A DNA stretch of 64,000 nucleotides from the NCBI RefSeq assembly GCF_046119375.1, contig NW_027362761.1, forward strand, positions 775,930,001-775,994,000. Reading direction: 5' to 3'. A program made the translations under genes and the position numbers. This document shows positions 12 to 35,523 of this stretch, one piece after another. Below the pieces are notes generated by a model. The model ran no database searches. It was not told the DNA's origin and saw nothing but the letters and a program-made list of their open reading frames with translations. Position 1 is the first letter of the stretch. Each line of letters begins with the position of its first letter. Origin of the DNA: Phyllobates terribilis. Taxonomy: Eukaryota.

Positions 12-3000
12 GTGGATGGAAGACTTCTCTCGGAGACCATCCTGCTCGTCACCGAACCCATAACCCTGCAGGTGGGAATGCTGCACTCTGAGGAGATCTC
101 ATTCCATGTGCTGTCCGGACTTTCTCACTCCCTGTTGCTAGGTCTACCTTGGCTCCAGACACATGAACCCGTATTGAACTGGCGGTCCGGTGAAGTACTC
201 CGATGGGGTCCTGACTGCCATAGGACCTGCTTGGTCCCGGTCCGTCCACTTCGCCCTCTGCCTACTCCAGCTAACTTACCTGGTCTCCCGGCTCCCTACT
301 GGCCCTATGCGGATGTCTTCGTTAAGAAGGAAGCTGAGACGTTGCTACCCCATAGGCCATACGATTGCCCGATCGACCTGGTACCTGGCACCACTCCTCC
401 CCGTGGGCGTATCTACCCGTTGTCTGCAGCCGAGACCCGAGCCATGTCTGAGTACATTGAAGAGAATCTGGCTAGGGGATTTATCCGAAAATCTACCTCC
501 CTGGCTGGAGCCGGATTCTTCTTTGTCAAAAAGAAAGACGGCTCGCTACGTCCCTGTATTGACTACAGAGGACTCAATCTCATCACGGTAAAAAACAAAT
601 ATCCCCTGCCACTCATCTCCGAATTGTTTGACCGTCTCAAGGGCGCCAGGATCTTCTCCAAGCTGGATCTACGAGGAGCGTATAATCTGGTCCGTATCCG
701 TCAAGGAGACGAGTGGAAGACGGCATTCAATACCCGGGACGGTCACTACGAGTACCTTGTGATGCCCTTCGGTCTCTGTAATGCTCCCGCGGTCTTTCAG
801 GAACTAGTCAACGACATCTTCCGTGACCTCCTGTACTCCTGCGTAGTGGTATACCTGGACGATATCTTGGTCTTCTCTCCGGATCTCCCCACACACCGGA
901 GGGATGTTCGTCAGGTCCTGCTTAGGCTTCGGCAGAACCACCTTTACGCCAAATACGAGAAGTGCCTCTTCGATCAGACCTCCCTTCCGTTCTTGGGCTA
1001 TGTCATCTCCCAAACAGGTCTGCAAATGGATCCCGAGAAGCTCTCTTCCGTTCTAAAATGGCCTCGTCCTGAAGGTTTGAAGGCGATACAGCGATTCCTG
1101 GGCTTCGCTAATTATTATCGTCTTTTCATCCCACACTTCTCGTCTCGGACTGCTCCCATATTTGCACTTACCCGTAAGGGGGCTAACCCCAGGACATGGT
1201 CGCCTGAAGCCGAGGAGGCCTTCCTTTCCCTAAAGAAAGCCTTCGCCTCTGCTCCCGTCCTGCACCGTCCGGACTGTAATAAACAATTCTACCTGGAGGT
1301 TGATGCCTCCTCCTCCGGAGCCGGAGCGGTGCTCACCCAGAAGTCTTCTACCGGGAGAATGGTAACGTGCGGCTTCTTCTCCAAAATCTTCTCCTCGTCG
1401 GAGCGCAACTACTCCATTGGAGACCGGGAATTGCTAGCCATCAAATTGGCACTGGGAGAGTGGCGCTATCTGCTTGAAGGGGCTCTCTACCAGGTAATTA
1501 TCTACACGGATCACAAAAACCTGGCATATCTCCAAAATGCCCAGAGACTCAATCCTCGCCAGGCCCGGTGGTCGTTGTTTTTTGCCCGCTTCGACTTCAT
1601 TCTTCATTTCCGTCCGGCGGACAAGAACGTCAAAGCTGATGCCTTGTCCCGGTCCTTCCTGTCCTCCGATCAAGAGGAGGAACCTACGCACATCATCGAC
1701 TCCTCCAAGGTGATGAATGTGGCCCCCTTGGATCTGACTCGTCTTCCACCCGGTAAGACGTTCGTAGCTGTGCCAGATCGGGAGAGGGTTCTTCGCTGGG
1801 GACATTCTTCTAAACTAGCTGGCCATGCTGGCCAAAAGAAGACCTTCCAACTTATTACCCGGCATTACTGGTGGCCTACCCTGCGTAAGGACGTGGTAGA
1901 CTTCGTCGCGGCCTGTTCATCCTGTGCCCGTAACAAAGTTCCCCGACATCTACCTGCCGGCCATCTCTTGCCCCTTCCCGTACCTGCTGCTCCTTGGCAA
2001 CACATCGCTATGGACTTTTTCACCGACCTTCCAGTTTCTGCCGGTTGCACTGTCATTTGGGTTGTCGCTGACCGTTTTTCTAAGATGGCCCACTTCATTC
2101 CCCTGCCTGGTCTTCCGTCTGCACCCGAGCTGGCTAAAGACTTTATCCGCCACATCTTCCGTCTCCATGGTCTGCCCCTCCACATCGTGTCGGATCGTGG
2201 GGTTCAGTTCACCTCTCGCTTCTGGAGAGCCACATGTAAGCTGCTGGACATTACCCTGGATTTCTCCTCCGCTTACCACCCTCAGTCCAATGGTCAAGTG
2301 GAGCGGATCAATCAGATCTTGTCCAGCTACCTCCGGCACTTCGTTGATGCTCACCACTCGGACTGGGTGGATCTCCTACCATGGGCCGAGTTCTCTTATA
2401 ACAACCATGAGAGCGAGTCCTCTTCTAAATCCCCGTTCTTTATAGTCAGTGGCCAACATCCCCGGATTCCACTTCCTGTCTCCGTTTCTGTGGACAACCC
2501 TGCTGCGGAGTCTCTTGTCAGCGAATTTTCTACTATTTGGGAGAGCACCAGGTCCGCTCTTCTTCTCTCCTCTGAGCGGATGAAGAGATATGCTGATAAG
2601 AGACGTCTGGATCCGCCCCAATTCCGTCCGGGAGACAAGGTTTGGCTCTCATCCAAACATGTGCAGCTCAAAGTACCCTCCTACAAGTTGGGTCCTCGAT
2701 TCATCGGCCCCTTCGAAGTCCTCAGGCAAATTAACCCTGTGGCCTACAAATTAAAACTCCCGGCCACCCTACGGATCCCCAACTCCTTCCACGTATCTCT
2801 CCTCAAACCCGTTGTCTTTAACTTTTTTTCAAAAAATCCAGGTGCCCCTCCTGCTCCGGTTTCTGCTGATGACATCTTTGAGGTAGAGAGTATTCTGGCC
2901 TCCAAGAGGGTAAGAGGAAAAACCTTTTTTCTGGTAGATTGGAAGGGGTTTGGTCCTGAGGAGAGAACTTGGGAACCCAGGGAGAACATCAACGCCCCGC

Positions 3001-16947: not shown

Positions 16948-17577
16948 TGTCACTGGTGTGTCAGATGTGACAGACAATCGCTCTGCAGTTGGCTGCAGAA
17001 GGTCTCTTCGTTTGGCATTGAAGACAGCTTTTTAAATCTGTCTTACTTTAGGACCCAGCGGATACCTCCCTCTTGCTCTGATATGTTTAAATACTTTCAG
17101 TTTGCTACAGGGAGGCGCCAGTGATATTCACATGTTCCCTTGTAAAGGCTTGGAGTGATTGCAATCAGCTTTCTTCCTCTCTGGTGCCTTGGAGGACGCT
17201 TGGTGTAATCTCTCTGAAGTTTCCTCCCCCTGTGTTTTTCTCTCTCGTTGTCTTTAGTTTATAGTGGGGACTGACCAGTGCTCATCCCTCCCCTTCCCTA
17301 TCCAGGGTCTAGGTCTAGGGATATACAGGGCTTGGGTTTCCTGCTCGGCGATTGGTGAGGAGCCAATATAGGGATGGTAGGGGAGACAGGGTGATATTAG
17401 ATCAGGCTAGGGGTCTCAACTTCCCCTTTCCCTAGTGTCTGGGCTCCCTTCCCCTCATCCCTTCATGTTGCACTTTGTCTTACCTACACTGTGCGTGACA
17501 TTATTACAACTGACACGTGGTTTTATTTGTGTTTTTTTTTTTTCGGGCGTGTTTTTTTTTCCCTTTCTCCCTTGGAT

Positions 17578-18400
17578 ATGGTTTCAGTTGCAGAGCTCAC
17601 AGAGCAGCTGCGCTGTCTGTCTCTGGAGGTGACTGGCCTCCACTGTGAGGTTCAACAGAAGCATCAGCGGCTGCAGGTCGCTAATGTTGCGGTCTCTGCA
17701 GGTAGGCCAATCCAGCTTGAATCCAAGGTTGCCCTCCCAGACAGGTTTTCAGGAGGTAGGGACAAGTTTTTTGTGTTCAAAGAGGCCTGCAAATTGTACT
17801 TTAAACTTCGTTCTTACTCCTCCGGAAATGAGGAACAACGAGTGGGAATTATAATCTCACTGCTGCAAGGAGATCCTCAATCTTTGGCTTTTTCCTTGCT
17901 GCAGGATTCGGTTTGTCTCCAGTCAGTGGAGGTTTTTTTTGTGGCCCTGGCCCTCATCTGTGATGACCTTGACCGATTCGCCTTGGCTGAGTCTAGGCTA
18001 CGTCGCCTGCAGCAGGGGAATCGGTCAGTGGAGACATACAGCTCTGAATTCCGTAGATGGGCAACGGATACAAAATGGAATGACTCAGCTCTTAGAAGCC
18101 AATTTTGACAGGGCCTTACTGAAAGGTTGAAAGATGCTTTGGCAGTATTTGAAACCCCTGAGTCCTTTGAGGCTGCCATGTCGTTGGCTATACGTGTTGA
18201 TAGACGCCTTAGGGATAGGTTGGTGATACCACCTTCTCCGGGGCCTTCTTGTCGGGGTTATGCCTCTTTGCCGGGGGTAGCGGTCTGGTGGTGAACCAGT
18301 ACAGGGGGAGGTGGAGGAACGCATGCAGTTAGGGGTTGCCTCTGCATCGTACATTTCCCCGGAGATTCGCAAACAAAAAGGCGTATTTTTTGTGGAAAAA
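17578..18400 (+). pseudogene. gag: gag of element B (premature TGA at 18106 and later disablements)
   Basis: LPDRFSGGRDKFFVFKEAC...LRRLQQGNRSVETYSSEFRRWATDTKWNDSALRSQF is typical retrotransposon capsid sequence. Confidence 0.85.
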
Positions 18401-18479
18401 ACTGACATTTTATTGGTGCCTGTCCTTCGATTCCTAAGCAAAAATAGACTCAATTAACCCTTGGTAGTCTGGAGTTGGA

Positions 18480-19567
18480 CATGAATTGGTGCATTTATCG
18501 TCAACCTGCAGTTCCCGGTTTGTTCTGACAACCAAGTTGGTGCTAGAGAGAAAAAACGAGAACATTTCTGTGTTTGTTTACAGTGGAGATGGAGTCAGCA
18601 TGGTTGATGCTGAGTTTGTGAGAACTCATGGTCTTTCTTGCTCTAATTTAGCTAAACTTATTCCCATCTTCGCCATCAACTCAGCGCCACTTGCACAGAA
18701 AGCTCTGACTCAGATTGTACATAATGTAACACTGAAGGTGGGGTTAGTTCATTGTGAGATAATCCCTTGCTATGTCCTGGACGGTCTTCCCACCTCAAAT
18801 GTTTTGGGTCTACCCTGGTTGGTGAAATATAATCCGTTGGTGGATTGGCAAGCCAGGGAGATCATTGAATGGGGAGATTACTGCCATGAGAACTGTTTAG
18901 ATATTTTCCTTTCTACAGTCTCTACGGAAATCTTACCTGCTTTTCTGTCTGGTTTTGAGGACGTTTTTTCTGAGAGGGGATGTCAGGATTTGCCTCCTCA
19001 TCGTGCATATGACTTTCCTATTAATCTGAGCCGGAGCTAAACTACCAAAGTCCAGATTGTATAATCTTGTATAATCTTTCTGGCCCTGAGAGACAAGCTA
19101 TGAAGGATTTAATTGCGGAAAGTCTGGAGAAGGGACATATTAAACCCTCATCTTTGCCCGTGGCGGCAGGGTTCTTCTTCATGAAGAAAAAAGATGGCGG
19201 CCTACATCCCTGTTTAGATTTCCGGGAATTAAATCAAATTACCATCCGAGATCTATACCCTCTTTCTCTGATTCCAGATTTGTTCAGCCAGGGGGACGCT
19301 CCTGCCTCCTGCCCTTCAGGAAGGTTATTTGTAACATCTAATCTGCGCCGCAAAGTAATTAAGGAACATCACAACTCTGTGTTTGCTGGTCATCTACGTG
19401 GTAAGGCAACTGCGAACCTCCTCTCTCGTCATTTTTGGTGGCTGGGGTTGCATTGGGATGTGGTTGAACACATCTGCTTGTAGTATTTATGTGCATTCTA
19501 AATGATCACATACCCGTCCGTCTGGTACTCTTCTTCCGCTAACTATGCCTAGCAGACCATGGACACA
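18480..19567 (+). pseudogene. pol: pol of element B with most of RT and all of RNase H deleted
   Basis: VLGLPWLVKYNPLVDW (protease end), [24 protein letters not shown] (RT start) joined in frame to [14 protein letters not shown]...HNSVFAGH (integrase start). Confidence 0.85.
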
Positions 19568-19731: not shown

Positions 19732-20125
19732 TTGTATAATTGTATAATATAATACCCTTTGTATAATTATAGGATTGATCTTTTGCATGTTTTGCAAGAG
19801 CCAGTGTCTTCGCCAACTGTCAGCAAAACTGGCGCATGACCTCAGCTTTCTTTGACCACATAATTGCTCCCCTGAAGCCGGGTGTATGCTTCCCGGTTTC
19901 AGAGGCGCACTGCGTATGTCCTGAAGTGAGAAAGATCCTTCTGTACATGGGCAGTATGCCTCTGAAGTCGGGAAGCATACACCGGGCATCAGAGAAGCAA
20001 TGATGATGATGTGGGCGAAGAGTTTTACAGAGAACTTGGGGTGCAGGCCATGCTGTGAGAACCAACTGGTCAGGGGAAAACAACACCCCATTGACTAGTC
20101 AAAGGCCTAATTAGCATATGAAATG

Positions 20126-21177
20126 TGTAGCGTCGGCGTCCCTGCCTCCTGCTAGGCAGGGACGCCGTTCCCCTCACCTCTCCGCTCCGTGCCCGGCGTC
20201 TTCCTCCCGCTCTGCTGGCAGCGCGCGCTGCTTCCCGGCCTCTGTGCTTAGGGCGCGCGCGCCCCCCCTCTCTTAAAGGGGCCGCGCGCGCCGTCCTAAG
20301 GAGTCTCCGGCCAATGGCCGGAGGACCTCACCATATATAAGGCACCTCCTCCAAAATGGAGGTGCCCGAGCAATGTTGTTGCAAAGCCTTTCAACTCTGC
20401 TTCAGCCCTCAGGTCCCGTTACCAGTTACCTGCCAGTCACCTGCTAGATTCCTGCTTGATACCTGCCCGATACCAGCCTGATATCTGCTTACCTGCTTGC
20501 TATCCTGTGGTCCGACAGTCTGCCTACCAGCACCTGCCAGTCTGTCTATGGATCAGTCCGCCTGCGGACCAGGAAGTACCTGCCAGATACCTGCCTGATA
20601 CCTGCCTGCCTGTCCAGAGACTCTTACTCGCTCACCTGGGAGCGCTCACCTGCTACCTGCCTGCTAGCCTACCTGGAGGCTTAGCCGTCACTTGCTGTGA
20701 CCACCTGCCTGTCCAGAGACTCTTGCCTGCTCACCTGGGAGCGCTCACCTGCTACCTGCCTGCTAGCCTACCTGGAGGCTCTGCCGTCACTTGCCGTGAC
20801 CACCTGCCTGTCCAGAGACTCTTGCCCGCTCACCTGGGAGCGCTCACCTGCTACCTGCCTGCTAGCCTATCTAGAGACTCTTTCCCTGCTGTCACTTGCC
20901 GTGACCACCTGCCCGTCTAGAGACTCTTTCCCTGCTGTCACTTGCCGTGACCACCTGCCCGTCTAGAGACTCTTACCCTGCTGTCACTTGCCGTGACCAT
21001 CCGCCTGTCAAGAGACTGTCCCCGTCACTTGCCGTGACCTCCTGCCCTTCTACCCAGAGACTGTCCCTGTCACTTGCCGTGACTACCTGCCCGCCTTTTC
21101 TGGGAGCCACCCTCTTCCTTACAAGGACTGCCCCTTTGTATAGTTGCTCAGAGGTTCCACCTCACAGTCCCGTTACA
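20126..21177 (+). repeat. 5' LTR of element C (1052 bp)
   Basis: TGTAGCG...GTTACA, TATATAA at 20334, internal 99-bp and 46-bp repeat arrays. Confidence 0.96.
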
Positions 21178-21189
21178 GTTTGCTCAGGC
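21178..21189 (+). promoter_or_regulatory. Putative self-priming primer-binding site, not tRNA-derived
   Basis: TTGCTCAGGC (21180-21189) is complementary at 9 of 10 positions to GCCCGAGCAA (20364-20373), which starts 30 nt after the TATA. No TGG tRNA-type PBS is present. Confidence 0.7.
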
Positions 21190-21190
21190 C

Positions 21191-22141
21191 ATGGAACCCG
21201 GTGGCACCCAAGCTCCCTCGCTCTCGGACCTATGCCATGAACTGTCCCGTCAGAGGTCCCAACAGGAGTTCATCCTGAGTCACCTGCGTAGTGTTAACTC
21301 CCGCCTGGACACACTGACTACATCTTCGGGACCGGCTTCCAGTCGCACGACTCCTACCCCGGCAGCGTCGCTGCCCATCAATTCCATGGCATCTCTTCCC
21401 GGTCCCCGCCTCACCGCCCCGCCTCGTTTTGGCGGAGATCCCGGTCAGGCACGGGGCTACATTAACCTGTGCACTCTGCACTTCGAACTGTTGGCACATC
21501 AGTTTTCCACCGACCGAGCCAAAGTAGCCTTCATCATGTCCCATCTCACGGGGGAGGCGCTGGCTTGGCTAAATCCTCTATGGGAGAGAGGAGACCCTCT
21601 GGTGTCCAATCTGCCAGCCTTTCTCTCGGCTTTCCGGAAGGTCTTCGACGAACCAGGACGGAGGACCTCATCCGCCTCATCTCTGCTCCGCCTCCGCCAA
21701 GGAAGTCTCACCGTGGGCCAATATGCCATACGGTTCCGTACCCTTGCTTCGGAGCTTGCCTGGGATAACGACGCCCTGGTGTCCGTCTTCTGGGAGGGCC
21801 TGTCCGGCCGTATTAAAGATGAACTCGCCGGTCTGGACATTCCTACCACTCTCGACGACTTAATTACACTTGCCACCCGGATTGACATCCGGTTCCAGGA
21901 GCGCACCAAAGAGGTCACCCGTGAGAGGAGGTTTCCACGCCTTGCCCCTACCTTCCAGAGACCCGTCACTTCCTCCGTTACTCCTCCGGCGCACTCACCC
22001 GAGCCTATGCAGGTCGACCAGACCAAGATGGTCAAGACCCGTCAAGAATTACGCCGTGCCGAGGGGAGCTGCTTCTACTGTGGCAGTAAGGAGCACCGGA
22101 TCCGTTCCTGCCCAGAGAGGTCGGGAAACGCCTGTGTCTAG
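21191..22141 (+). CDS. gag: Gag of element C (capsid domain plus CCHC zinc knuckle), 316 aa, intact
   Basis: PPRFGGDPGQARGY, LRLRQGSLTVGQYAIRFRTLA, PEPMQVD, CFYCGSKEHRIRSC. Confidence 0.95.
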   Translation: MEPGGTQAPSLSDLCHELSRQRSQQEFILSHLRSVNSRLDTLTTSSGPASSRTTPTPAASLPINSMASLPGPRLTAPPRFGGDPGQARGYINLCTLHFELLAHQFSTDRAKVAFIMSHLTGEALAWLNPLWERGDPLVSNLPAFLSAFRKVFDEPGRRTSSASSLLRLRQGSLTVGQYAIRFRTLASELAWDNDALVSVFWEGLSGRIKDELAGLDIPTTLDDLITLATRIDIRFQERTKEVTRERRFPRLAPTFQRPVTSSVTPPAHSPEPMQVDQTKMVKTRQELRRAEGSCFYCGSKEHRIRSCPERSGNACV

Positions 22142-22183
22142 GATCGCTCAGAGAGGTCACCCTAGACAGAAATAAACCCTCTC
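22123..22183 (+). promoter_or_regulatory. -1 ribosomal frameshift signal of element C
   Basis: G GGA AAC at 22123-22129 in the gag frame. Stem TGTCTAGG (22135-22142)/CCTAGACA (22161-22168). Loop GAGAGG (22151-22156) can pair with CCTCTC (22178-22183). The -1 frame is open into pol. Confidence 0.8.
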
Positions 22184-25100
22184 CATCTCTAATGCTGTCG
22201 GTCTCTATCATCTGCGGGGAGAATCGTTATTTTGAACTGGCTCAACTTGACTCTGGAGCTGTCGGAAATCTCATTTCTCAGTCTCTGGTAGAGAGATACC
22301 GCATTCCCACCAAACCTCTGGCTGTACCCTTATCTGTCGCCGCCGTGGATGGGGGCCTCTTACCACATCCCATCCAACTCATCACCGAATCCATAACTCT
22401 GCAGGTGGGAATGCTGCACTCTGAGAGCATCTTCTTCCATGTTCTGCCTGGACTCTCTCACGCCCTCTTGCTAGGCCTACCTTGGCTCCAGAGACACGCA
22501 CCCGTGCTTGATTGGCAGACCGGAGAAGTTCTTCGCTGGGGACAGGACTGCCATAAGACTTGTTTAGTTCCCGTTCATCCTGCTCGTCCTTCTCCAACCC
22601 CAGCCAATCTACCAGGCCTACCGGTTCCCTATTGGTCTTTTGCGGACGTCTTTAATAAAAGAGAAGCAGAGACATTACCCCCTCATAGACCATACGACTG
22701 CCCAATTGACCTGATGCCCGGCGCTACTCCTCCCCGTGGGCGTATTTACCCTTTGTCCGCTGCTGAGACCCGGTCCATGTCTGAATATATTGAGGAGAAT
22801 CTGGCCCTGGGATTTATCCGGAAATCTACCTCCCCGGCGGGAGCAGGCTTCTTCTTCGTCAAAAAGAAGGACGGCTCACTCCGTCCCTGTATAGACTATA
22901 GAGGCCTTAACCAGATCACAGTGAAGAATAAATACCCCCTTCCGCTCATTCCTGAATTATTTGACCGTCTGAGGGGGGCTAGAATCTTCACCCAGCTGGA
23001 CCTCCGTGGGGCATATAATCTGGTCCGTATCCGTCAGGGGGATGAATGGAAGACGGCATTCAACACCCGGGACGGCCACTATGAATATCTTGTAATGCCC
23101 TTCGGTCTCTGTAACGCTCCCGCCGTCTTTCAAGAGTTGGTCAATGACATCTTCCGTGACCTTCTCTACTCCTGCGTGGTGGTATACCTGGACGACATCT
23201 TGGTCTTCTCTCCGGATCTTCTCACTCACCGGAGGGACGTTCGTCAGGTCCTGCTCAGGCTCAGGCAGAACCACCTCTACGCTAAATATGAGAAGTGCCT
23301 CTTTGAGCAGACCTCGCTTCCGTTCCTGGGCTACATAATCTCTCAGACCAGCCTACAAATGGACCCTGAGAAACTGTCTGCCATCCAGAAGTGGCCCCGA
23401 CCAGAGGGGTTGAAGGCTATTCAGCGGTTCCTGGGCTTCGCCAACTACTACCGCCTCTTCATTCCACATTTCTCTTCCCGGACTGCCCCTATCTCGGCGC
23501 TCACCCGTAAGGGCGCTAATCCCAGAGAATGGCCGCCCGAAGCAGAGGAGGCCTTCCTTTCCTTAAAACAAGCTTTTTCCTCCGCCCCTGTGCTGCATCG
23601 TCCGGGCGGCAACAAACAATTCTTTCTAGAAGTCGACGCTTCCTCCTCCGGAGCCGGAGCAGTACTTACCCAAAAGTCGTCTTCCGGAAGAATGGTAATT
23701 TGCGGCTTCTTCTCCAATCTCTTCTCCTCTTCTGAGTGCAATTATTCTATAGGAGACCGAGAATTGTTGGCCATTAAGCTGGCACTGGAGGAGTGGCGTT
23801 ACCTGCTCGAGGGGGCTCTTCACCCGGTAATAATTTACACGGACCACAAGAACTTGGCTTACCTCCAGAGTGCCCAGAGACTTAACCCGCGCCAAGCCCG
23901 GTGGTCCTTGTTCTTCGCCCGCTTTAATTTCATTCTTCATTTTCGGCCGGCTGACAAAAACATCAAAGCTGATGCTTTATCCCGATCCTTTTTGGTCTCT
24001 GATCTTGAGGAGGAGCCTAAACACATCATCGCCCCCTGCCAAAGTAATGCAAGTGGCCCCCTTGAATCTTAATCGTCTTCCACCCGGTAAGACGTTCGTA
24101 ACTGTTCCTGATCGTGAGAAGGTTCTACACTGGGGACACTCGTCCAAGCTAGCTGGCCACGCTGGTCAGAAAAAGACCCTCCAGCTTATTACCCGGCATT
24201 ACTGGTGGCCTACCCTGCACAAGGACGTAATAGACTTTGTTTCAGCCTGTGTGTCCTGCGCCCGCAACAAGGTTCCGAGACATCTGCCAGCCGTCCGTCT
24301 CCTTCCTCTTCCTGTACCTGCTACCCTGTGGCAGCATATAGCTATGGACTTAATAACGGACCTCCCTGTCTCTGCCGGTTGTACGGTCATATGGGTGGTC
24401 GCTGACCGCTTTTCCAAAATGGCTCACTTTATTCCCCTGCCGGGTCTCCCGTCTGCATCATAGTTAGCTAAAGACTTTATCCATCATGTCTTCCGTCTTC
24501 ATGGTCTTCCTCTCCACATCGTATCCGACTGAGGGGTTCAGTTCACCTCTCGTTTTTGGCGAGCCATGTGTAAACTGCTGGGGGTCACCTTGGACTTTTC
24601 TTCTGCGTATCACCCACAGTCCAATGGCCAAGTAGAACGGATCAACCAAATTTTAACCAGTTACCTCCGGCACTTTGTTAATGCTCACCATTCCGACTGG
24701 GTGGATCTTTTACCGTGGGCCAAATTTTCTTGCAATAATCACGAGAGCGAATCTTCCTCCAAATCCCCGTTTTTTGTAGTCTTCGGTCAGCATCCTCGGA
24801 TCCCGTTTCCCGTCTCCGCCTCGGTGGACAATCCGGCTGCGGAATCTCTCATTAACGAATTTTCCTCCATTTGGGAAAGTACCAGATCCACACTTCTTCA
24901 ATCATCCGAGCGGATGAAAAAACAGGCTGACAAGAGACGTCTGGATCCACCACAATTCCGTCCTGGAGATAAGGTCTGGCTCTCGTCCAAATATGTCCGG
25001 CTCAAGATTCCTTCCTACAAGTTAGGGCCTCGGTTCATTGGCCCACTGGAAGTTATCAAACAAATCAACCCGGTGGCCTAGAAATTGAAACTCCCGGCCA

Positions 25101-25395
25101 ATTTGCGGATTCTTAACTCCTTCCATGTATCTCTACTCAAGCCCGTGATACTTAACTCTTTTTCCAAGTCTACAGGTACGCCTCCTGCTCCGGTTTCCGC
25201 TGAAAACGAGTTTGAGGTAGAGAACATTCTGGCCACCAAAAGGGTAAGAGGAAGGACCTTTTTTCTAGTGGATTGGAAGGGGTTTGGTCCTGAGGAGAGA
25301 ACATGGGAGCCCCGGGAGAACGTCCATGCCCCCGCTCATCCTTGATAAATTTCTGTCTAGCCTAAAAAAGGGGGGGCCTAAAGGGGGGGTACTGT
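22123..25395 (+). pseudogene. pol: pol of element C (PR-RT-RNaseH-INT-chromodomain), disabled in its 3' half
   Basis: LDSGA protease motif, YLDD, RNase H, integrase and chromodomain motifs. +1 frameshift near 24030, stops at 24461, 24530 and 25079, and a frameshift near 25333 relative to element A. Confidence 0.93.
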
Positions 25396-26587
25396 AACGT
25401 CGGCGTCCCTGCCTCCTGCTAGGCAGGGACGACTTTCCCCTCACCTCTCCGCTCCGTGCCCGGCGTCTTCCTCCCTCTCTGCTGGCAGCGCGCGCTGCTT
25501 CCCGGCCTCTGTGCTTAGGGCGCGCGCACGCTCCCCCTCTCTTAAAGGGGCCACGCGCGCCGTCCTAAGGAGTCCCCGGCCAATGGCCTGAGGACCTCAC
25601 CATATATAAGGCACCTCCTCCAAAATGGAGGTGCCCGAGCAATGTTGTTGCAAAGCCTTTCAACTCTGCTTCAGCCCTCAGGTCCCGTTACCAGTTACCT
25701 GCCAGTCACCTGCCAGATTCCTGCTTGATACCTGCCCGATACCAGCCTGATATCTGCTTACCTGCTTGCTATCCTGTGGTCCGACAGTCTGCCTACCAGC
25801 ACCTGCCAGTCTGTCTATGGATCAGTCCACCTGTGGACCAGGAAGTACCTGCCTGATACCTGCCTGCCTGTCCAGAGACTCTTACTCGCTCACCTGGGAG
25901 CGCTCACCTGCTACCTGCCTGCTAGCCTACCTGGAGGCTTAGGCGTCACTTGCTGTGACCACCTGCCTGTCCAGAGACTCTTGCCCGCTCACCTGGGAGC
26001 GCTCACCTGCTACCTGCCTGCTAGTCTACCTGGAGGCTCTGCCGTCACTTGCCGTGAACACCTGCCTGTCCAGAGACTCTTGACCGCTCACCTGGGAGCG
26101 CTCACCTGCTACCCGCCTGCTAGCCTACCTGGAGGCTCTGCCGTCACTTGCCGTGACCACCTGCCTGTCCAGAGACTCTTGCCCGCTCACCTGGGAGCGC
26201 TCACCTGCTACCTGCCTGCTAGCCTACCTGGAGGCTCTGCCGTCACTTGCCGTGACCACCTGCCTGTCCAGAGACTCTTGCCCGCTCACCTGGGAGCGCT
26301 CAGCTGCTACCTGCCTGCTAGCCTATCTAGAGACTCTTTCCCTGCTGTCACTTGCCGTGACCACCTGCCCGTTTAGAGACTCTTACCCTGCTGTCACTTG
26401 CCGTGACCATCCGCCTGTCAAGAGACTGTCCCCGTCACTTGCCGTGACCTCCTGCCCTTCTACCCAGAGACTGTCCCTGTCACTTGCCGTGACTACCTGC
26501 CCGCCTTTTCTGGGAGCCACCCTCTTCCTTACAAGGACTGCCCCTTTGTATAGTTGCTCAGAGGTTCCACCTCCCAGACCCGTTACA
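25393..26587 (+). repeat. 3' LTR of element C (1195 bp)
   Basis: TGTAACG...GTTACA. Five 99-bp units (25870, 25969, 26068, 26167, 26266) versus three in the 5' LTR. Confidence 0.96.
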
Positions 26588-27491
26588 AAATGCAAAGTTT
26601 ATAAAGCCTTTTTAAGCATTTGTCTAGGTGTTAAACACTAGAGGGCTGGTTAGGCAGCGTATTTAGCAACAAATAGTCTAATGCTAGTGGGTTGGAGTTC
26701 ATGGGGGACCTGTCAGGTTCCCTTTAAATCAGACACTTAGGAACGTTGTAGACTAGGTTTTGGTTCTATCGGGCCTACAATTAGTTTCTACTGTCTAGAA
26801 CTTACCTTTCTTGAGATATTCGCCAAAAAAATAGAACACCAATAGAAATATTTACTGCCAAACACCTGTTCCAAAATGCCCTATATTTGCCTCTTTTACA
26901 CCAGATTTCAGCTGTCTAAGACCTACCATTCTCGACAAATTGACTGAAAAAAAATAACACAAAAATATTCTCAAAATATTTGGAAAAAAATGGAATACGA
27001 AATCAAATACAAATATACAGCTAAATTACTAAACTATTCAACACCAAATCTGGCATACAGGTAAATCAGGCTCTTTGGACTGTTTTAATCCAGGTTTCAG
27101 CTCCCTAAGATCTACTGTCCTCGATAAATTCGCAAAAAAACAGAATATAAATGAAAAGATTAATTTATGGATAAACCACTATACCAGTCTGCCCTTATTT
27201 TGGCACATACAGTTAGGTCTAGAAATATTTAGACAGTGACCAAATCTTTGTGATTTGGGCTCTGCATGCCACTCTTTTTTATTTAAAGCACACCTGTCAG
27301 CAGGATTGTGCTCAGTAAACTACATACACTGTCAGGTGGGCGACATTACACTGTTTAAAATGATCTCTTGGTTGATTAAATCCGTCCTGTGGTTCTTGTG
27401 TAATGTTTACTTTCAGTTTGGAGATAATGATATGCCTGTGCCCCGGGGCAGCCTGTGGGGAGCGCTCTATCTTGTGCTCTGCTTGCATATT

Positions 27492-28531
27492 TGTGTCACC
27501 CTGACCTGGATGCCACAAGTGTAATTAAAGCTGTGTCTGAGAGCAAGGGGGAGGTTCTCTAGTCAGGGGAACATTAGCATGCAATGCCTCCTGTCTCAGG
27601 CCAGTAGGGGGAGCTGGCTGCCCCTATAAAAGCTGGTACTGAGGGCAGGGTTAGAGAGAACTGGAAAGCCTGTCTCAGCACTGAGACGTGTCCCAGAGTG
27701 GAGCAGGGACAGAAAGTTGATTGCACCTAAGAGGAAGTGTGGCAGGAGGAGAGCCACAAGCCAGAGACAAGAGGCGAAGAGAGCCTGTCTTGGCAGAGAA
27801 AAGACTTAATTTTACCAGACTTTGGTGTCTGAGGCTGGAAGGATTCCACATCCCCCAGCAGAGAACCAGTCCGCAAGGGACTGTACATTCCTTGGCCTAA
27901 GAAGCCTGGAGGCCCTGCCACAACCGAAGGGACCAGTAAAGCCGTACAAGGCTGGGAGCAGAAAGGAACCCACGTCGCAGGCCATACAGGCGAGAATACA
28001 CGGAGAGCTCGGAAACGTGGGCTGTTATCCTATCAGGAGGAGATAGCCAGAAGGAGCGCAGAAAGCACGGTAGGCCTACACCCTCACCCTGACCAGGGCC
28101 AATTTCCCCGTTGCTCTCAGACATCCAGGTCCCCTCCTAGCCGGGACTGTTTGTGGGTCAATTTACCTGTTTTAGTAAAGACCCTGGACTGCAACCTGTT
28201 GTCTGTGTGCTCCTTGCTCCTCCAGCACTACCAGCACTGGGACTCTCACTACCATCACTCCCACCATCCACTATACTGCCCTGGGGCCGCACTCTTCCCG
28301 TGGGGAGTCACACTACCCTAGCTGCACACCTCATCAGCCCCAGCGGTCTGCATGCAGCGGCGGTTCCTAATAACCGCAATCCACGGGTGGCGTAGTCGGA
28401 CATAAACATCAGTACATAACGGACTACCACTGGCCTGACCACCCTGAGCCACGGAACCGGGTTGCCACTACTACTCCCACCGTTTCCCTATTGCCCGGAT
28501 CCGAGTGCCCCACGGCCCAGGGGGCGAGTCA
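27492..28531 (+). repeat. 5' LTR of element D
   Basis: TG...CA termini, TATAAA at 27625, AGTAAA at 28174. Confidence 0.96.
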
Positions 28532-28535
28532 GCTT

Positions 28536-28554
28536 TGGCATAGTCGGCAGGATT
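28536..28554 (+). promoter_or_regulatory. tRNA-Ser primer-binding site of element D
   Basis: TGGCATAGTCGGCAGGATT versus TGGCGTAGTCGGCAGGATT, the complement of the vertebrate tRNA-Ser(AGA/TGA) 3' end as recalled. One mismatch, 4 nt after the LTR. Confidence 0.88.
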
Positions 28555-28980
28555 TCGTGCCCGCAACCACCGGGTACTGCGTGCCTGAAAAAGACTTTTG
28601 TAACTTACCTGTGGCGAAGTTTCCCGCCGTCCGGAGTCGTTTCCCGCCATCCGGAGCCGATTCCTGCCATCAGACGCCATCTTGGACCTTTTCCCGCCGT
28701 CTTCTGCCGTCTTCCCGCCATCCGCAGCTGCTTCCCGCCATCGGACTCCATCTTCAGGACGCTGCGCGGGAAGAAGAGGGGCGTGGACGTCAAAACCGCG
28801 CGGGATCCGAAGCTCCGCCCCACGCACCGACGCTGCGCAAGGTCCTGGAAGGGAGAGACAGCGACGCTGACGTCATCAGGACGCGACGCCAGGTCCTCGT
28901 CCATAGCAGCAGCAGCGGAGCCGCGGCCTACAGAAGAGGATCGTCGGAAGGTAGGCCACGCTTAACTAGGGGGGAGGAAG

Positions 28981-29973
28981 ATGTCGGACACAGAGGCCCC
29001 CACTACCACCAACGCAGCTGCAGCAGCGGTGATGCCCTTTTCCCTGCCCTACATCCCTGGAGCGGCCTGGCTGCCCAAATACTCAGGGGAGCCCCATGCC
29101 CTAACTGACTTCAAGGAAAGGCTATACAGTTTGTTCCAGGTTTACCCCCTGACAGAGGAACAGAAGGTCAGCATATTGACAGGGCAGTTAACTGGCGCAG
29201 CCCAAAGGAAGGTAAAATCATGGCCCACTGAGGAGAAAAGGACTGTGAAGGGTATTCTGGCCCGGCTGCGGGGTACCTTTGACACACGTACCTCCGCTGA
29301 AATTAAAATGAGGTTCTATGGATGTAAGCAGCGGGCACAGGACAGCATCAGAGACTATGCCCTAAATCTACAGGAAGCCTTGAGGGCTATTCAACAAACT
29401 GACCCTGGCAGTGTGCAGGACACCGATAAGCTGCTAACAGAACAATTCATAGAGGGTCTGCTGTCTAGCGCCCACAGGGCCCAACTGCGCCTCATGTTCT
29501 TTCAGAACCCCGACCTGACCTTTGCCCAATTTAAGGACAGGGCCATAAGGGTGCTCCGTGAATCTGCAACCAGTGTCGCTATAAACCCCCGGCGCCCTGC
29601 TATCACTTACCACCAGGAGGCGGCGCCCTCCTCTATGGACTCCGTGGAGGCTGATGCACAGGCCATGAACCAAGCCCCGTCGAAAGATCTGCACCACCAA
29701 GTCCAGGAGCTGACCAGGAGCGTCGCGGCGTTGACCAGGACCGTCCAGGCGTTGCAAGTGGACCCGTCAAGACCCATCGAGCTGGCTTCAAGTCCGGAGG
29801 ATGTCCTGTGGCGTCGACAGAGGAGGATCCCGTCGTTCCGAGGGAGGCCCACAGACCGCTACGCAGAGGATGGACAGCCCATTTGCCGTCGATGCATCCA
29901 GCCCGGACACATTTCCAGGTACTGTAATTTAAACGGGTCCAACCTGGGGCAGAGGGCCAACCCCCAGGCATAA
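28981..29973 (+). CDS. gag: Gag of element D (PNMA-like capsid plus CCHC knuckle), 330 aa
   Basis: LPKYSGE, FYGCKQRAQDSIRDYALNLQEAL, LLTEQFIEGL, CRRCIQPGHISRYC. Confidence 0.93.
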   Translation: MSDTEAPTTTNAAAAAVMPFSLPYIPGAAWLPKYSGEPHALTDFKERLYSLFQVYPLTEEQKVSILTGQLTGAAQRKVKSWPTEEKRTVKGILARLRGTFDTRTSAEIKMRFYGCKQRAQDSIRDYALNLQEALRAIQQTDPGSVQDTDKLLTEQFIEGLLSSAHRAQLRLMFFQNPDLTFAQFKDRAIRVLRESATSVAINPRRPAITYHQEAAPSSMDSVEADAQAMNQAPSKDLHHQVQELTRSVAALTRTVQALQVDPSRPIELASSPEDVLWRRQRRIPSFRGRPTDRYAEDGQPICRRCIQPGHISRYCNLNGSNLGQRANPQA

Positions 29974-29987
29974 GATCACCAGGCCCT
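29928..29987 (+). promoter_or_regulatory. -1 ribosomal frameshift signal of element D
   Basis: T TTA AAC at 29928-29934 in the gag frame, 8-nt spacer, stem 1 CCTGGGG (29943-29949)/CCCCAGG (29962-29968), stem 2 AGGGCC (29953-29958)/GGCCCT (29982-29987). The -1 frame is open into pol. Confidence 0.85.
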
Positions 29988-30032
29988 TACAATTGGCGTA
30001 ATAAGTACATTGGGGGGCGCCCGGTTTTACCC

Positions 30033-33000
30033 GTGGTGCTGGACGGTATCCCCATGAACGCCTTGCTGGATACTGGGTCACAAGTAACCACTATCCCTTA
30101 TGTACTTTTTAAGCAGTATTGGACTGATGCTGATATCACACGGTATCCAGACAGTAACTTGAGCATCATCGCCAGTAATGGCTTACCCGTGCCGCAGATG
30201 GGGTTCAAGGAGATGACCATTAAAATTGGTAAAGTTGAACTGCCAGCACAGGGAGTGATTATTGTGGACATTGACCGTCATGAAAGTCACCCTAAAATAA
30301 CTGTGGGTACTAACATAATTGAAAATTGTCTTTCAGAGGTAATTGTAATTCTACAACAGGTGGCAGTGAATGCTAGTTCCAGCCAACAGAGAGTCCTCAA
30401 CAAGGAGATAAAAGCCCTGATGAGACGGCAGCAGGTAGAACTGTCTGGTGGTGAGATCGGTAGCGTAAGACTCAGTGATCCATTCCCCATTTCCATGCCT
30501 CCCAAAAGTGAAATGATGATCTGGTGTTGGACTGCAATCGGGTTGAGAGGTAGAGACTACCAAGCCATGGTAGAACCCGTGTACTCAGACAGCAGGCCCA
30601 CCATTTTGATAGCCCGGGGGGTGGTTGATGTCCGTCATGGGAGGGTGCCCGTCCGCATCCTCAACATTGGGGAGAGGGAAGTACACTTATCCAGGTACGC
30701 TACACTCGCCAAACTGTTTGTTGTCGAACACCAAGCTATCAGGGCCGTGGAACCCTTGCCTCCATCTCCTCAGGCGGAGGGTAATGGCTCCCAGAAACAA
30801 AAGGAGGACTGGTGCCAGAAACTCCATGTGGGTGCTGACTCCACTCCCCTGCACCAAAAACAAGGAGTCTACCGGGTGGTACAGGAGTACGAGAGAGTCT
30901 TTAGTAAGCACCCGCTAGACTTCGGCAGAGTAAAAGGGATAGAACACCACATCCCCACAGGGAGCCACCCACCAATAAAAGAGAGGCACAGACCTGTACC
31001 CCCTGCACATTATCAGAACGCAAAGGGCATGCTAAGAGAGATGAAAGAAGCTGGGGTTATTAGAGACAGCTGTAGCCCCTGGGAAGCCCCTTTGGTTCTG
31101 GTGAAAAAGAAAGACCGCACCATGAGAATGTGCGTGGACTATAGACAAATCAACCGTATCACCCACAAAGACGCATATCCGCTGCCTAGAATAGAGGAGT
31201 CTTTAGCCGCACTAAAATCTGCTAACTTCTTTTATACTTTGGACCTTACTAGCGGGTACTGGCAGGTTCCTGTGGCAGAGGCTGACAAGGAGAAGACCGC
31301 CTTCACCACCCCGATGGGACTGAGCGAATTCAACTGCATGCCTTTCGGACTCTGCAACGCACCAGGGACCTTCCAGCGGCTGATGGAATGCTGTCTAGGG
31401 CACCGAAACTTCGAGACGGTTCTCCTTTACCTGGACGACGTGATCGTCTATTCGAAGACCTACGAGGACCATATAAAGCACCTGGCCGAGGTGTTCGAAG
31501 CCCTGGTAGGCTATGGCCTGAAGGTGAAACCATCGAAGTGCCACCTGCTGAAACCAAAGGTCCAGTACCTAGGGCACGTGGTAAGCGCGGAAGGAGTGGC
31601 CCCCGACCCTGACAAGGTCACGGCAATCAAGAGCTGGCCAAGCCCCTCGAACATCAAAGAGGTGAGACAGTTTCTCGGGTTGGTAGGCTACTACCAAAGG
31701 TTCATCCCCGGGTTCACCAAGATGGCAGATCCTATGCAGGACCTCCTGATCGGACAGTCTAAGTCCAGGAGTCAAAAGCCACCTTTCAAGTGGGATAAAC
31801 CGGAAGAGGAGTCCTTCCGCCAGCTAAAGATGGCCCTCACGGGGGATGAGATCCTGGCCTACCCTGATTACGGCCAGCCTTTCATTCTCCACACAGATGC
31901 CAGTAATGTGGGACTGGGAGCCGTACTGTCCCAAAACCAACAGGGCAGAGAACGGGTGATCGCATACGCCAGCCGGAAGCTGAGGCCCACCGAGAGGAAC
32001 CCGGAGAATTACAGCTCCTTCAAGCTAGAATTCTTGGCGGTGGTGTGGGCCGTGACGGAACGCTTCAAGCATTACCTGGCCTCCGCAAAGTTCACCGTGT
32101 ACATGGACAACAACCCGTTGACACACCTGGACAATGCAAGACTGGGTGCCCTGGAACAGCGGTGGATGGCCCGTCTCTCCAACTATGACTTCGTGATCAA
32201 GTACCGGGCAGGCAAAACCAACGCCAACGCGGACGCCCTATCAAGAATGCCTCACTTACCTGAAGGTGACGAAGACCCAGAAGAGCTGGAGGAGGTAGAA
32301 CTCCCCGCGTTTCACCGGTATGGAGCCGCTCAACACTCTCACCGCGTGAAGGAGGAGGATCTAACAACTGTGATGATGAATCCCCTACCTCACCACAGCT
32401 GGGCCGAGACCCAAGATAGTGACCCTGCAGTCCGCCTGGTGAAAGATCTGCTGACCCGGGAAGACGCCCGCCTAGATCCAGATGCCCCAGAGGAAGCCAA
32501 GCAGCTATGGAAGGAGAAGAGCAAGCTGTTCCTCTACGAAGGCAAGTTGTGCAGAAGGATTGTTAACCACCGGACGCACGAGCTGACCTGGCAAGTCGTG
32601 GTCCCAAGGCGAGATGCAGCTATGGTACTGGGGGCTTACCATGACAGAGCGGGACACTTCGGTTGGAAGAAACTGGAGTTCCTACTAAGAGGAAGGTTCT
32701 TTTGGGTCTGCATGAGAGGAGCTGTGGAAAAATGGTGTAGAGACTGTGGCCCTTGTCACCTAAGGAGGAAGGACCGTACCAGCCAGAAGACACCCTTGAG
32801 GCCCATCGTCACCACGCAGCCTCTTGAGCTGGTAGCTCTGGACCATGTCAAATTGGCTCCCAGCCGGTCAGGATACATCTATGCCCTGACAATCGTGGAC
32901 CACTATTCCCGTTTTCTAGTGGTGGTCCTGGTAAAGGACTTGACAGCCCAAACAGCGGCCAGAGCCTTCCAACGATACTTCTGCCGTCCTCACGGGTATC

Positions 33001-34097
33001 CGGAACAGGTCCTGACAGACCAGGGTCCAGCGTTCGAAGCTGAAATCTTCCAGGAGTTCTGCAACCTCTATGGCTGTAAGAAGATTCGGACAACGCCTTA
33101 CCACCCCCAAACCAACGGGATGTGTGAGAAGATGAACAATATAGTCATTGATCTCCTGAAGACGTTGCCCCTGGAGGAACGCAGCCTGTGGCCAGAAAAA
33201 TTGCCGGACCTGGTAGACATGTACAACAACATCCCGGTGAACGCTACAAACTGCACCCCGGCTTACCTGATGCGAGCTAGACCAGGTAAGCTGCCCGTAG
33301 ACCTGGAGATGGGAGTCCTAATACCTGAGGACACCTCCCCGGATGCGGACTGGGATACGGAAAGGCAACTGCAGTACAAGAAGGTACAGGAGAGTGTGGA
33401 GAAGAGCCTGGCCCAGGTGAGAGAGAAGCAAGAAAGACTCTTCAATCAACACGCCCCTGCTGGTCCCCTAGAACCTGGTGAGCAAGTCCTAAAGCGAAAA
33501 AGAAGGCTACATAAGTTGGACGACCAATGGGAAAGGGAACCCTACACCGTACTGCAGTCTGACCACGACAACCCAAAGGTGTGCGTAATCACCAAGGACG
33601 GAGGAGAAACCACTAGTGTCGTCTCCAGAGACCACCTCAAAAGGTGCCCCGAGCAACTCCGTAGTGCAGAAGAGGATCAGAGTGACCTTGAACCCGCAGA
33701 GGACAAGGAAGAAATGATCAGCACCGTTCTCGGAGAGTTCCCTCAGTCCTGGACTCGCATAAATGATGCCATAGTGGTACCCGTCCTGCATTTCCTGCAA
33801 CCGGCACAGCAACAACCAACACCAGAGCCGGAAGGTGAAGAGGAGCGAGCGGTTCCAGAGGCAGAAGAGCCTGTACCAGCAGCCCAGGAGAGTCAACCCT
33901 CTGCTGACAGTGAGCCTGCCATGCCTGCGGTAAGCCAAAGGACCCGCAGACAGCTGCCTGCCCTACCTGTACACCCAGCTGGTAGCTGTACCCCTAACGC
34001 TAGTGGGGAAAGCCAGGTTAGTCCACCACCAGACAGTGGGTTAAGGAGGTCAACCAGGAGCACAAAGGGACAGATACCCGCTCGCTGGAGACTATAG
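30033..34097 (+). CDS. pol: Pol polyprotein of element D (protease, RT, RNase H, integrase). Probably expressed as Gag-Pol, frame open from 29928.
   Basis: LLDTGSQVT, LDLTSGYWQV, MPFGLCNAPGTFQR, YLDD, HTDASNVGLGAVL, HDRAGH...CRDCGPC, LDHV/TDQG/E core. 1354 codons without a stop. Confidence 0.96.
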   Translation: MVLDGIPMNALLDTGSQVTTIPYVLFKQYWTDADITRYPDSNLSIIASNGLPVPQMGFKEMTIKIGKVELPAQGVIIVDIDRHESHPKITVGTNIIENCLSEVIVILQQVAVNASSSQQRVLNKEIKALMRRQQVELSGGEIGSVRLSDPFPISMPPKSEMMIWCWTAIGLRGRDYQAMVEPVYSDSRPTILIARGVVDVRHGRVPVRILNIGEREVHLSRYATLAKLFVVEHQAIRAVEPLPPSPQAEGNGSQKQKEDWCQKLHVGADSTPLHQKQGVYRVVQEYERVFSKHPLDFGRVKGIEHHIPTGSHPPIKERHRPVPPAHYQNAKGMLREMKEAGVIRDSCSPWEAPLVLVKKKDRTMRMCVDYRQINRITHKDAYPLPRIEESLAALKSANFFYTLDLTSGYWQVPVAEADKEKTAFTTPMGLSEFNCMPFGLCNAPGTFQRLMECCLGHRNFETVLLYLDDVIVYSKTYEDHIKHLAEVFEALVGYGLKVKPSKCHLLKPKVQYLGHVVSAEGVAPDPDKVTAIKSWPSPSNIKEVRQFLGLVGYYQRFIPGFTKMADPMQDLLIGQSKSRSQKPPFKWDKPEEESFRQLKMALTGDEILAYPDYGQPFILHTDASNVGLGAVLSQNQQGRERVIAYASRKLRPTERNPENYSSFKLEFLAVVWAVTERFKHYLASAKFTVYMDNNPLTHLDNARLGALEQRWMARLSNYDFVIKYRAGKTNANADALSRMPHLPEGDEDPEELEEVELPAFHRYGAAQHSHRVKEEDLTTVMMNPLPHHSWAETQDSDPAVRLVKDLLTREDARLDPDAPEEAKQLWKEKSKLFLYEGKLCRRIVNHRTHELTWQVVVPRRDAAMVLGAYHDRAGHFGWKKLEFLLRGRFFWVCMRGAVEKWCRDCGPCHLRRKDRTSQKTPLRPIVTTQPLELVALDHVKLAPSRSGYIYALTIVDHYSRFLVVVLVKDLTAQTAARAFQRYFCRPHGYPEQVLTDQGPAFEAEIFQEFCNLYGCKKIRTTPYHPQTNGMCEKMNNIVIDLLKTLPLEERSLWPEKLPDLVDMYNNIPVNATNCTPAYLMRARPGKLPVDLEMGVLIPEDTSPDADWDTERQLQYKKVQESVEKSLAQVREKQERLFNQHAPAGPLEPGEQVLKRKRRLHKLDDQWEREPYTVLQSDHDNPKVCVITKDGGETTSVVSRDHLKRCPEQLRSAEEDQSDLEPAEDKEEMISTVLGEFPQSWTRINDAIVVPVLHFLQPAQQQPTPEPEGEEERAVPEAEEPVPAAQESQPSADSEPAMPAVSQRTRRQLPALPVHPAGSCTPNASGESQVSPPPDSGLRRSTRSTKGQIPARWRL

Positions 34098-34483
34098 AGT
34101 GTACCAAGATTGTAAATTACCCTGTTGCAAAATGTTGAAATGTTTGCCAAGTTACCTGCGTGATTATTAATAGCGTGTTTCAGTTTCTTGCAGCTACCGT
34201 AAGGACTCAAAGGTTATGGACTTTTTATAACCGGGACCTTGTATGGACTGCGTTTGGAGCCTAACCCAGGAGTGAACTAAGACTGTAAAGGACTTGGGGT
34301 AGGACAGACCCCCACCTGGTTAAGGCTCCCCGTTGTGCTGGTGATATGGACACCCGGTCACAGACCACACTGTGACCTTAAGAACTCAATTTGTGCGTCA
34401 TCTGTCTATTAATGTTTTATTGTTATGCATATTGTCTTTGTTTATTGTTTAGTCCCGGAGTACTAAATTTCACTAGGGCGGAA

Positions 34484-35523
34484 TGTGTCACCCTGACCTG
34501 GATGCCACAAGTGTAATTAAAGCTGTGTCTGAGAGCAAGGGGGAGGTTCTCTAGTCAGGGGAACATTAGCATGCAATGCTTCCTGTCTCAGGCCAGTAGG
34601 GGGAGCTGGCTGCCCCTATAAAAGCTGGTACTGAGGGCAGGGTTAGAGAGAACTGGAAAGCCTGTCTCAGCTCTGAGACGTGTCCCAGAGTGGAGCAGGG
34701 ACAGAAAGTTGATTGCACCTAAGAGGAAGTGTGGCAGGAGGAGAGCCACAAGCCAGAGACAAGAGGCGAAGAGAGCCTGTCTAGGCAGAGAAAAGACTTA
34801 ATTTTACCAGACTTTGGTGTCTGAGGCTCGAAGGATTCCACATCCCCCAGCAGAGAACCAGTCCGCAAGGGACTGTACATTCCTTGGCCTAAGAAGCCTG
34901 GAGGCCCTGCCACAACCGAAGGGACCAGTAAAGCCGTACAAGGCTGGGAGCAGAAAGGAACCCACGTCGCAGGCCATACAGGCGAGAATACACGGAGAGC
35001 TCGGAAACGTGGGCTGTTATCCTATCAGGAGGAGATAGCCAGAAGGAGCGCAGAAAGCACGGTAGGCCTACACCCTCACCCTGACCAGGGCCAATTTCCC
35101 CGTTGCTCTCAGACATCCAGGTCCCCTCCTAGCCGGGACTGTTTGTGGGTCAATTTACCTGTTTTAGTAAAGACCCTGGACTGCAACCTGTTGTCTGTGT
35201 GCTCCTTGCTCCTCCAGCACTACCAGCACTGGGACTCTCACTACCATCACTCCCACCATCCACTATACTGCCCTGGGGCCGCACTCTTCCCGTGGGGAGT
35301 CACACTACCCTAGCTGCACACCTCATCAGCCCCAGCGGTCTGCATGCAGCGGCAGTTCCTAATAACCGCAATCCACGGGTGGCGTAGTCGGACATAAACA
35401 TCAGTACATAACGGACTACCACTGGCCTGACCACCCTGAGCCACGGAACCGGGTTGCCACTACTACTCCCACCGTTTCCCTATTGCCCGGATCCAAGTGC
35501 CCCACGGCCCAGGGGGCGAGTCA
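34484..35523 (+). repeat. 3' LTR of element D
   Basis: Offset 6992 from the 5' LTR, preceded by a short purine tract AGGGCGGAA. Confidence 0.96.

Follow-up and report, generated by a model that had tools for sequence, protein, structure and literature searches.

Element C lies in a 64,000-nucleotide stretch of the Phyllobates terribilis genome (hereafter the window), and the sequence behind its 5′ LTR bears out the original prediction that it has no TGG-type primer-binding site. How, then, would such an element start reverse transcription? The family was predicted to prime itself, with the 5′ end of its own RNA annealed to the bases behind the LTR; the prediction placed TATATAA at 20334, an upstream 10-mer at 20364, the LTR end at 21177, a docking site at 21180-21189, and the gag ATG at 21191, and all of these coordinates are correct. 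The site TTGCTCAGGC pairs with GCCCGAGCAA at 9 of 10 positions, the sole mismatch being C20367/A21186, and GCCCGAGCAA begins 30 nt after the start of TATATAA, both as originally described. The 3′ LTR holds an identical 10-mer (25633-25642).

Element C, its neighbors, and the question of chance

Element C has the features of a chromovirus (Ty3/Gypsy). Its pol gives Pfam matches in the order protease, reverse transcriptase (RT), RNase H, and integrase, with a C-terminal chromodomain (E = 2.9e-11, 25082-25342), and it carries TG...CA LTRs, a 5-bp target site duplication (TSD), and a polypurine tract (Table 1). The LTRs are 95 to 98% alike outside a tandem-repeat block, whose copy number differs between them, and the TATA box holds the same position in 27 of 30 close copies. 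The best solved relative of the gag protein is PEG10 (7lga; E = 2.3e-09), which is reported to use the same heptamer, GGGAAAC, that stands at the end of gag in C (PMC10570562); gag and pol of C are predicted to be joined by a -1 frameshift. The pol frame is disrupted by a frame change in the region of the RNase H/integrase junction and by in-frame stops at 24461-24463, 24530-24532, and 25079-25081. With a broken pol and a mismatched docking site, this copy is dead. The nearest named proteins come from poison-dart frogs first and then from other frogs and fishes.

Table 1. Features of element C, with the corresponding 10-mer of element A, in window coordinates
Feature	Position	Strand	Remarks
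Element A, 10-mer in 3′ LTR	3305-3314	+	same as in C; 30 nt after TATAAAA
TSD AAATG	20121-20125 (left), 26588-26592 (right)	+	5 bp; flanks element C
Element C	20126-26587	+	ends set by LTR pair and TSD AAATG
5′ LTR	20126-21177	+	1052 bp, TGT...ACA; tandem-repeat block in R-U5
CCAAT box, putative function	20311-20315	+	upstream of TATA box
TATA box TATATAA	20334-20340	+	same position in 27 of 30 close copies
Inverted repeat GGCACCTCC...GGAGGTGCC	20341-20366	+	9 bp; spans predicted start
Predicted self-primer GCCCGAGCAA	20364-20373	+	start predicted from TATA+30 and T/G initiator
Candidate second pretzel helix	20374-20380 with 21173-21179	+	R segment after primer with LTR end and spacer; weak
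Candidate third pretzel helix, GGTTCCA with TGGAACC	21153-21159 with 21192-21198	+	over gag start; crosses primer helix
Spacer GT	21178-21179	+	2 nt, between LTR end CA (21177) and docking site
Putative primer-binding site TTGCTCAGGC	21180-21189	+	without TGG; followed by C21190, then gag ATG (21191)
gag ORF	21191-22141	+	316 aa, open; Retrotrans_gag, Ty3_capsid, and DUF4939 matches
pol	22090-25345	+	protease, RT, RNase H, integrase, SH3, chromodomain
Slippery heptamer GGGAAAC	22123-22129	+	directly upstream of gag stop; pol in -1 frame
Polypurine tract AAAGGGGGGG	25380-25392 (purines 25380-25389)	+	followed by TAC spacer, then 3′ LTR
3′ LTR	25393-26587	+	1195 bp

Several smaller features of the LTR were also recorded. 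The 9-bp inverted repeat recurs in shorter forms in some other families and is not evident in others. At the 3′ LTR of the RNA it would mask three bases at the start of the second 10-mer, and this masking might stop that copy from competing for the docking site. The U5 of C has a second TTGCTCAG near the LTR end (21144-21151), the LTR-end word GTCCCGTTAC recurs in R (20414-20424), and in one sampled copy (L262) the sequence between two LTR-end words is deleted, with 58 nt left. Neither AATAAA nor a near variant is present between the predicted start (20364) and the LTR end (21177) in C's family, and two other elements (L205 and L207) have AATAAA 31 to 32 nt upstream of the LTR end.

A chance match in a GC-rich LTR is the simplest rival reading of the complementarity. 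When the internal 10-mers of C were used as mock sites, 75 of 4145 found a 9/10 complement somewhere in the LTR, but none of the 4145 did so at TATA+27..33. Together with 10/10 pairing in 18 of 21 elements and the compensatory changes described below, this refutes the chance reading, whose probability we regard as negligible.

Other elements of the window bear on the same point. The original prediction had noted the same 10-mer in the LTR of element A, and it is indeed present in the 3′ LTR; at the 5′ junction of A, in a neighboring stretch (L091), pairing is 10/10. The control Gypsy element D (27492-35523) has a TGG-type site at 28536. Element D is called young, with LTRs 99.4% alike, a PNMA-like gag, and an open pol frame of 1389 aa. 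A Pfam search gave no chromodomain match in D, and self-complementarity reached at most 7/10 when ten offsets were tried over its whole LTR. An older chromovirus remnant (17086-19483) retains gag, protease, and integrase pieces; its predicted 10-mer survives (17117-17126), and the site after its LTR end (17500) has decayed. Relatives such as L146 show 10/10 pairing, with a spacer that appears to be 1 nt. Most copies of the old family to which the remnant at 17578 belongs pair poorly, and the best result, 9/10 at a TATA-linked place, was found in 3 of 30; the family was too decayed for a clean test, and many of its junction picks were wrong.

Covariation of the two 10-mers across families

Searches with the gag family supplied diverged relatives of C. 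A first pass anchored on gag found differing sites, each with its own complement upstream. For a non-circular test, LTR ends were fixed from LTR pairs alone in 60 stretches of 10 kb and in 3 elements of the window. Of these 63 stretches, an LTR pair flanked gag or RT in 32, the ends could be refined in 29, and a matching TSD was present in 21, so that 42 of the 63 had been dropped before the TSD-checked count; the 21 elements are related to one another, with L181 and L182 sharing a TSD and L173 to L176 belonging to one family.

The covariation expected between the two 10-mers across subfamilies holds. The ten bases that start at LTR end +3 have a 10/10 complement in 18 of the 21 TSD-checked elements and a 9/10 complement in two (C and L202), and the remaining element (L197) reaches 7/10, part of its 10-mer being deleted. 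In 20 of the 21 the best complement lies 29 to 31 nt after a TATA-like motif, from a motif list compiled after the sequences had been seen, and second-best complements match only 7 to 8 of 10 bases. The design of the test sets the spacer at 2 nt in all 21; an unconstrained search for the longest exact complement returned either a 2-nt spacer with 10 bp or a 1-nt spacer with 11 bp, the latter in subfamilies with A as the eleventh base. When eight site types were crossed with eight LTRs, each site paired 10/10 with its own LTR only and at 3 to 9 positions with the others.

Eleven perfectly paired primer/site types were found in total, namely, the eight TSD-checked types and three more (ATACTCAAGC, TATAGCCGGC, and TTGCTCAGGC/GCCTGAGCAA) from gag-anchored loci whose LTR ends were not TSD-checked. 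Across the eleven, pairs 1 and 2 are invariant (G-C and C-G), and each of pairs 3 to 10 takes two to four Watson-Crick forms, with changes on both sides. The helix keeps a constant length of 10, and pair 11 is mismatched in 7 of 15 representatives; a pyrimidine precedes the 10-mer in all 15. The types track RT clades that are 57 to 95% identical to C. At the internal region's opposite end, TAC or TAA stands between the purine tract and the 3′ LTR in all 21 TSD-checked elements.

Two side observations concern the sampled junctions. In 8 of 80 (L250, L262, L264, L283, L285, L308, L318, and L321), the sequence leaves gag about 15 nt after the ATG for another sequence common to them, with the TATA box, 10-mer, and site kept; these are likely a non-autonomous subfamily that retains the priming signals. 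In L207 (G000:C4:488090791-488100790), spacer and site together read GTATCAGAG, as in the TGGTATCAGAG site of L061. This resemblance is probably due to chance, because sister copies differ by one letter.

The TGGCGCCGTTGCC and TGGTATCAGAG sites lie on small contigs and are taken here to be of plant type. The best 150 matches to Retrotrans_gag (PF03732) are all on small unplaced contigs (C2755-C8306), e.g., L093, L061, L062, and L110. They have the look of plant retrotransposons and no match to frog gag, and there are no frog families among them. Such plant-like retrotransposons on small contigs suggest that plant DNA is present in the assembly.

The covariation also bears on the possibility that priming relies on a tRNA fragment or small RNA of the host and that the LTR match is a by-product of copying. 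Half-tRNA priming without a TGG is reported from Ty1/copia lineages (PMC6317226). Our screen with RF00005 was nearly empty, returning tRNA-Lys(TTT) only from the 16 of 30 loci scanned, which is too narrow to exclude tRNA fragments, and the 10-mer of one family matches this tRNA at 8/10 or better. However, about eleven host RNAs would be needed, each matched by chance at TATA+30 in the LTR of its own family, and element D, which does have a TGG-type site, shows no such match in its LTR. We consider a host primer highly improbable. As a separate observation, tRNA-Lys(TTT) occurs in large tandem arrays at G000:C1:816.9-817.9 Mb (period of about 1.05 kb) and at C11:574-576 Mb.

The mismatch at 21186 and the flanking helices

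The single mismatch in C had been read as the product of CpG decay from an ancestral G at 21186. Genome-wide counts of exact 24-letter junction patterns found at least 16,580 junctions with the fully pairing G at the equivalent position, 427 with A as in C, and 247 in which the same CpG has undergone its other change, C to T; reversed-pattern controls gave 0. The consensus letter is thus G, by far the commonest at 16,580 of the 17,254 junctions counted. Among the 30 closest copies of C, a query biased toward A, 29 junctions were readable, with 24 G and 5 A. The exact partner 10-mer is present in 29 of 30 sampled G-type copies.

A-type sites are more varied. Of 30 sampled junctions, 23 keep GCCCGAGCAA, two have other single changes, one has no readable partner, and four carry a compensating T, i.e., GCCTGAGCAA. 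Three of these four (L249, L251, and L255) belong to clearly diverged subfamilies and pair 10/10 again, 30 nt from a TATA-like box. The rate of CpG change in the docking site (3.9%) is close to the 4.9% (129/2609) measured in gag at 36 CpG sites, for which 75 of 79 sampled copies were used, as would be expected of decay after insertion. The two differ in the direction of change, with CA exceeding TG at the site and TG exceeding CA in gag, and part of the CA excess at the site is real biology, the compensated A-type pairs. A reading of the A-type sites as one spreading lineage was considered and rejected, as several U5 types carry them and 26 of the 30 are uncompensated or unreadable. For C itself, decay after insertion is the most likely origin of the mismatch, because A is rare relative to G among the junctions and because both LTRs of C keep C opposite A21186, leaving the mismatch uncompensated. 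The decay explanation fits C and does not extend to every A-type site.

The Tf1 RNA structure is reported to contain three duplexes arranged as a "pretzel" (PMC10085805), and candidates for the two helices that would flank the primer helix were sought in C and its relatives. Neither candidate in C stands out from shuffled sequence, with 122 of 200 shuffles reaching the second helix and 105 of 200 reaching the duplex energy of the third. The second (R/LTR-end) helix beats shuffles in 2 of 15 representatives, and the third (U5-leader) helix does so in 6 of 15 (no more than 10 of 200 shuffles reach it), C's family being among neither group. In C's family only the 7-bp core of the third helix is kept; its GGTTCCR/TGGAAYC pairing is retained in 77 of 80 close copies despite A/G variation.

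When full leaders were folded, the primer helix had P > 0.7 in 8 of the 15 representatives, 0.26 to 0.44 in 2, and approximately 0 in 5, including C. Nested folding must choose one helix because the U5-leader helix crosses the primer helix. When the leader was cut at the end of the site, the primer helix formed in 15 of 15 representatives, a biased result since the helix then closes the molecule. This cut folding was rejected as support, the median being 0.99 in both the A-type and the G-type sets (14 each).

The overlap with the gag start gives weight to another possibility, namely, that the pairing is structural only, serving packaging, dimerization, or translation control at the gag start, and that priming falls to a host RNA or, in trans, to the 5′ end of a second packaged RNA. 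Covariation demonstrates pairing and neither cleavage nor priming; only 1 nt separates the site from the start of gag, several families have their gag ATG covered by the third helix, and pairing in trans between two RNAs would leave the same sequence signal, with loops that reach 1.2 to 1.5 kb. Against this, the paired site occupies exactly the docking position of a primer, 2 nt after CA, and has its end there in all families, and downstream of the LTR there is no further conserved primer site. The fixed helix length of 10, with its frequent mismatch at pair 11, also argues against a purely structural role, and even priming in trans would draw on the element's own RNA. We therefore regard the structural-only reading as improbable.

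Proposed mechanism and comparison with known systems

The reading that we prefer is that the ten bases after the LTR very probably dock the 5′ end of the element's own RNA as a primer, as in Tf1. The G majority at 21186 and the covariation support the original claim that this family primes itself, with the transcription start and the priming step predicted from sequence. Pol II would start at G20364, as suggested by the TATA+30 spacing and the pyrimidine/G initiator seen in all 15 representatives. Four contig sets presumed to derive from RNA span the LTR and, being contigs, do not resolve starts. The first 10 nt of the RNA, for which complementarity and covariation are observed, would pair in the cell with the site across a loop of 0.2 to 1.5 kb, 200 nt in the short-loop family of L044; one or two pretzel-type helices on its flanks, which are partly supported, may assist. 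The element's RNase H would then cut after about nt 10, by analogy with Tf1, where the cut follows nt 11, and RT would copy the 2-nt spacer and then U5-R. The resulting DNA would end 2 nt past the terminal CA and would be trimmed by integrase; the 2-nt spacer, together with the TAC or TAA before the 3′ LTR, implies that extra end bases are trimmed in this way. The first ten bases would be lost from strong-stop DNA and regained from the 3′ LTR, and during plus-strand synthesis the primer would be copied into its own docking site. Any change in the 10-mer would in this way reach the site after one or two cycles, which would account for the free drift of the pair between families.

In the literature searched, bench proof of self-priming comes from fission yeast only, and for vertebrates the idea has been predicted on grounds of complementarity. 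A prediction of this kind calls for comparative proof, which is supplied by eleven perfect pairs that differ in their letters and keep a constant spacing from the TATA box. Given that the family is young and, by its count of exact junctions (at least 16,580), very abundant, tRNA-free priming probably helped to inflate the 10.6-Gb genome. Elements of this sort will be under-called by LTR-finding programs that require a tRNA site. Neither the mechanism nor the group is new, and nothing is overturned.

Self-priming has been demonstrated experimentally for Tf1/Tf2 of Schizosaccharomyces pombe and predicted for Tj1, Tosmo1-3, and Tcry1. The sources describe how the first 11 bases of Tf1 RNA pair with the site and an RNase H cut between bases 11 and 12 releases the primer (PMC7175516), how the choice of start site determines whether the RNA contains the primer (PMC5341516), and how the end of the Tf1 cDNA retains the copied site (PMC11042837). 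Like Tf1, the frog family is a chromodomain Gypsy lineage that has no tRNA site, has instead a site complementary to the predicted 5′ end of its RNA, and has the potential for flanking helices of the kind described for Tf1 (PMC10085805). Differences are also evident. The primer helix is 10 bp in the frog family and 11 nt in Tf1 (PMC7175516), and the frog site stands 2 nt off the LTR CA, whereas that of Tf1 appears to abut the LTR, judging from the account of its cDNA end (PMC11042837). The frog loop is 0.2 to 1.5 kb long and filled with tandem repeats, unlike that of Tf1, and gag and pol are predicted to be joined by a -1 frameshift, whereas Tf1-type elements have one ORF or a read-through stop. 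Self-priming in Tf1 is experimental, and the frog family is known here from its sequence.

Within vertebrates, the closest counterparts are the Tf1/sushi elements of the GyDB V-clade (sushi-ichi and Amn-ichi/ni/san), with which C shares a PEG10-related gag and the GGGAAAC heptamer. An RT tree of 37 rows, rooted at the midpoint, with no named sushi-ichi, Amn, or Tf1 rows and with one long, unreliable row (L168), placed 32 frog and fish rows in one set (96/95), apart from the fungal, algal, and plant rows and element D; L163 and L195 were left out for their short RT matches. Further afield, self-priming has likewise been predicted from complementarity between site and LTR in plant Tcn1 chromoviruses and in TAR/Houba copia elements (PMC6317226). 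These differ from the frog family in host and clade, TAR being of the Ty1/copia lineage.

Self-priming is described in several papers as a feature common to the Tf1/sushi group from yeast to vertebrates (PMC6317226, PMC4600332, and PMC10085805, all citing Butler et al. 2001), and its occurrence in vertebrate Tf1/sushi elements is thus already proposed in print. We found no report of primer/site covariation in vertebrate elements in the literature searched, a weak negative, as most subscription papers and supplements lay outside that search. One could go further and see here a distinct form of vertebrate chromovirus self-priming not yet described, with a capped 10-nt primer that always begins with GC and reaches over a loop of up to 1.5 kb to dock 2 bases from the LTR end, retrovirus-like 2-nt ends trimmed by integrase, and a primer recopied into the site each cycle to give a family-specific drifting code; one family would owe it more than 16,000 copies. 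This fuller proposal is tentative, and we think it rather unlikely to hold in its entirety. What appears to be new is the strong comparative support for self-priming in this group and a predicted 10-nt primer that docks 2 nt off the LTR end, unlike the 11 nt of Tf1.
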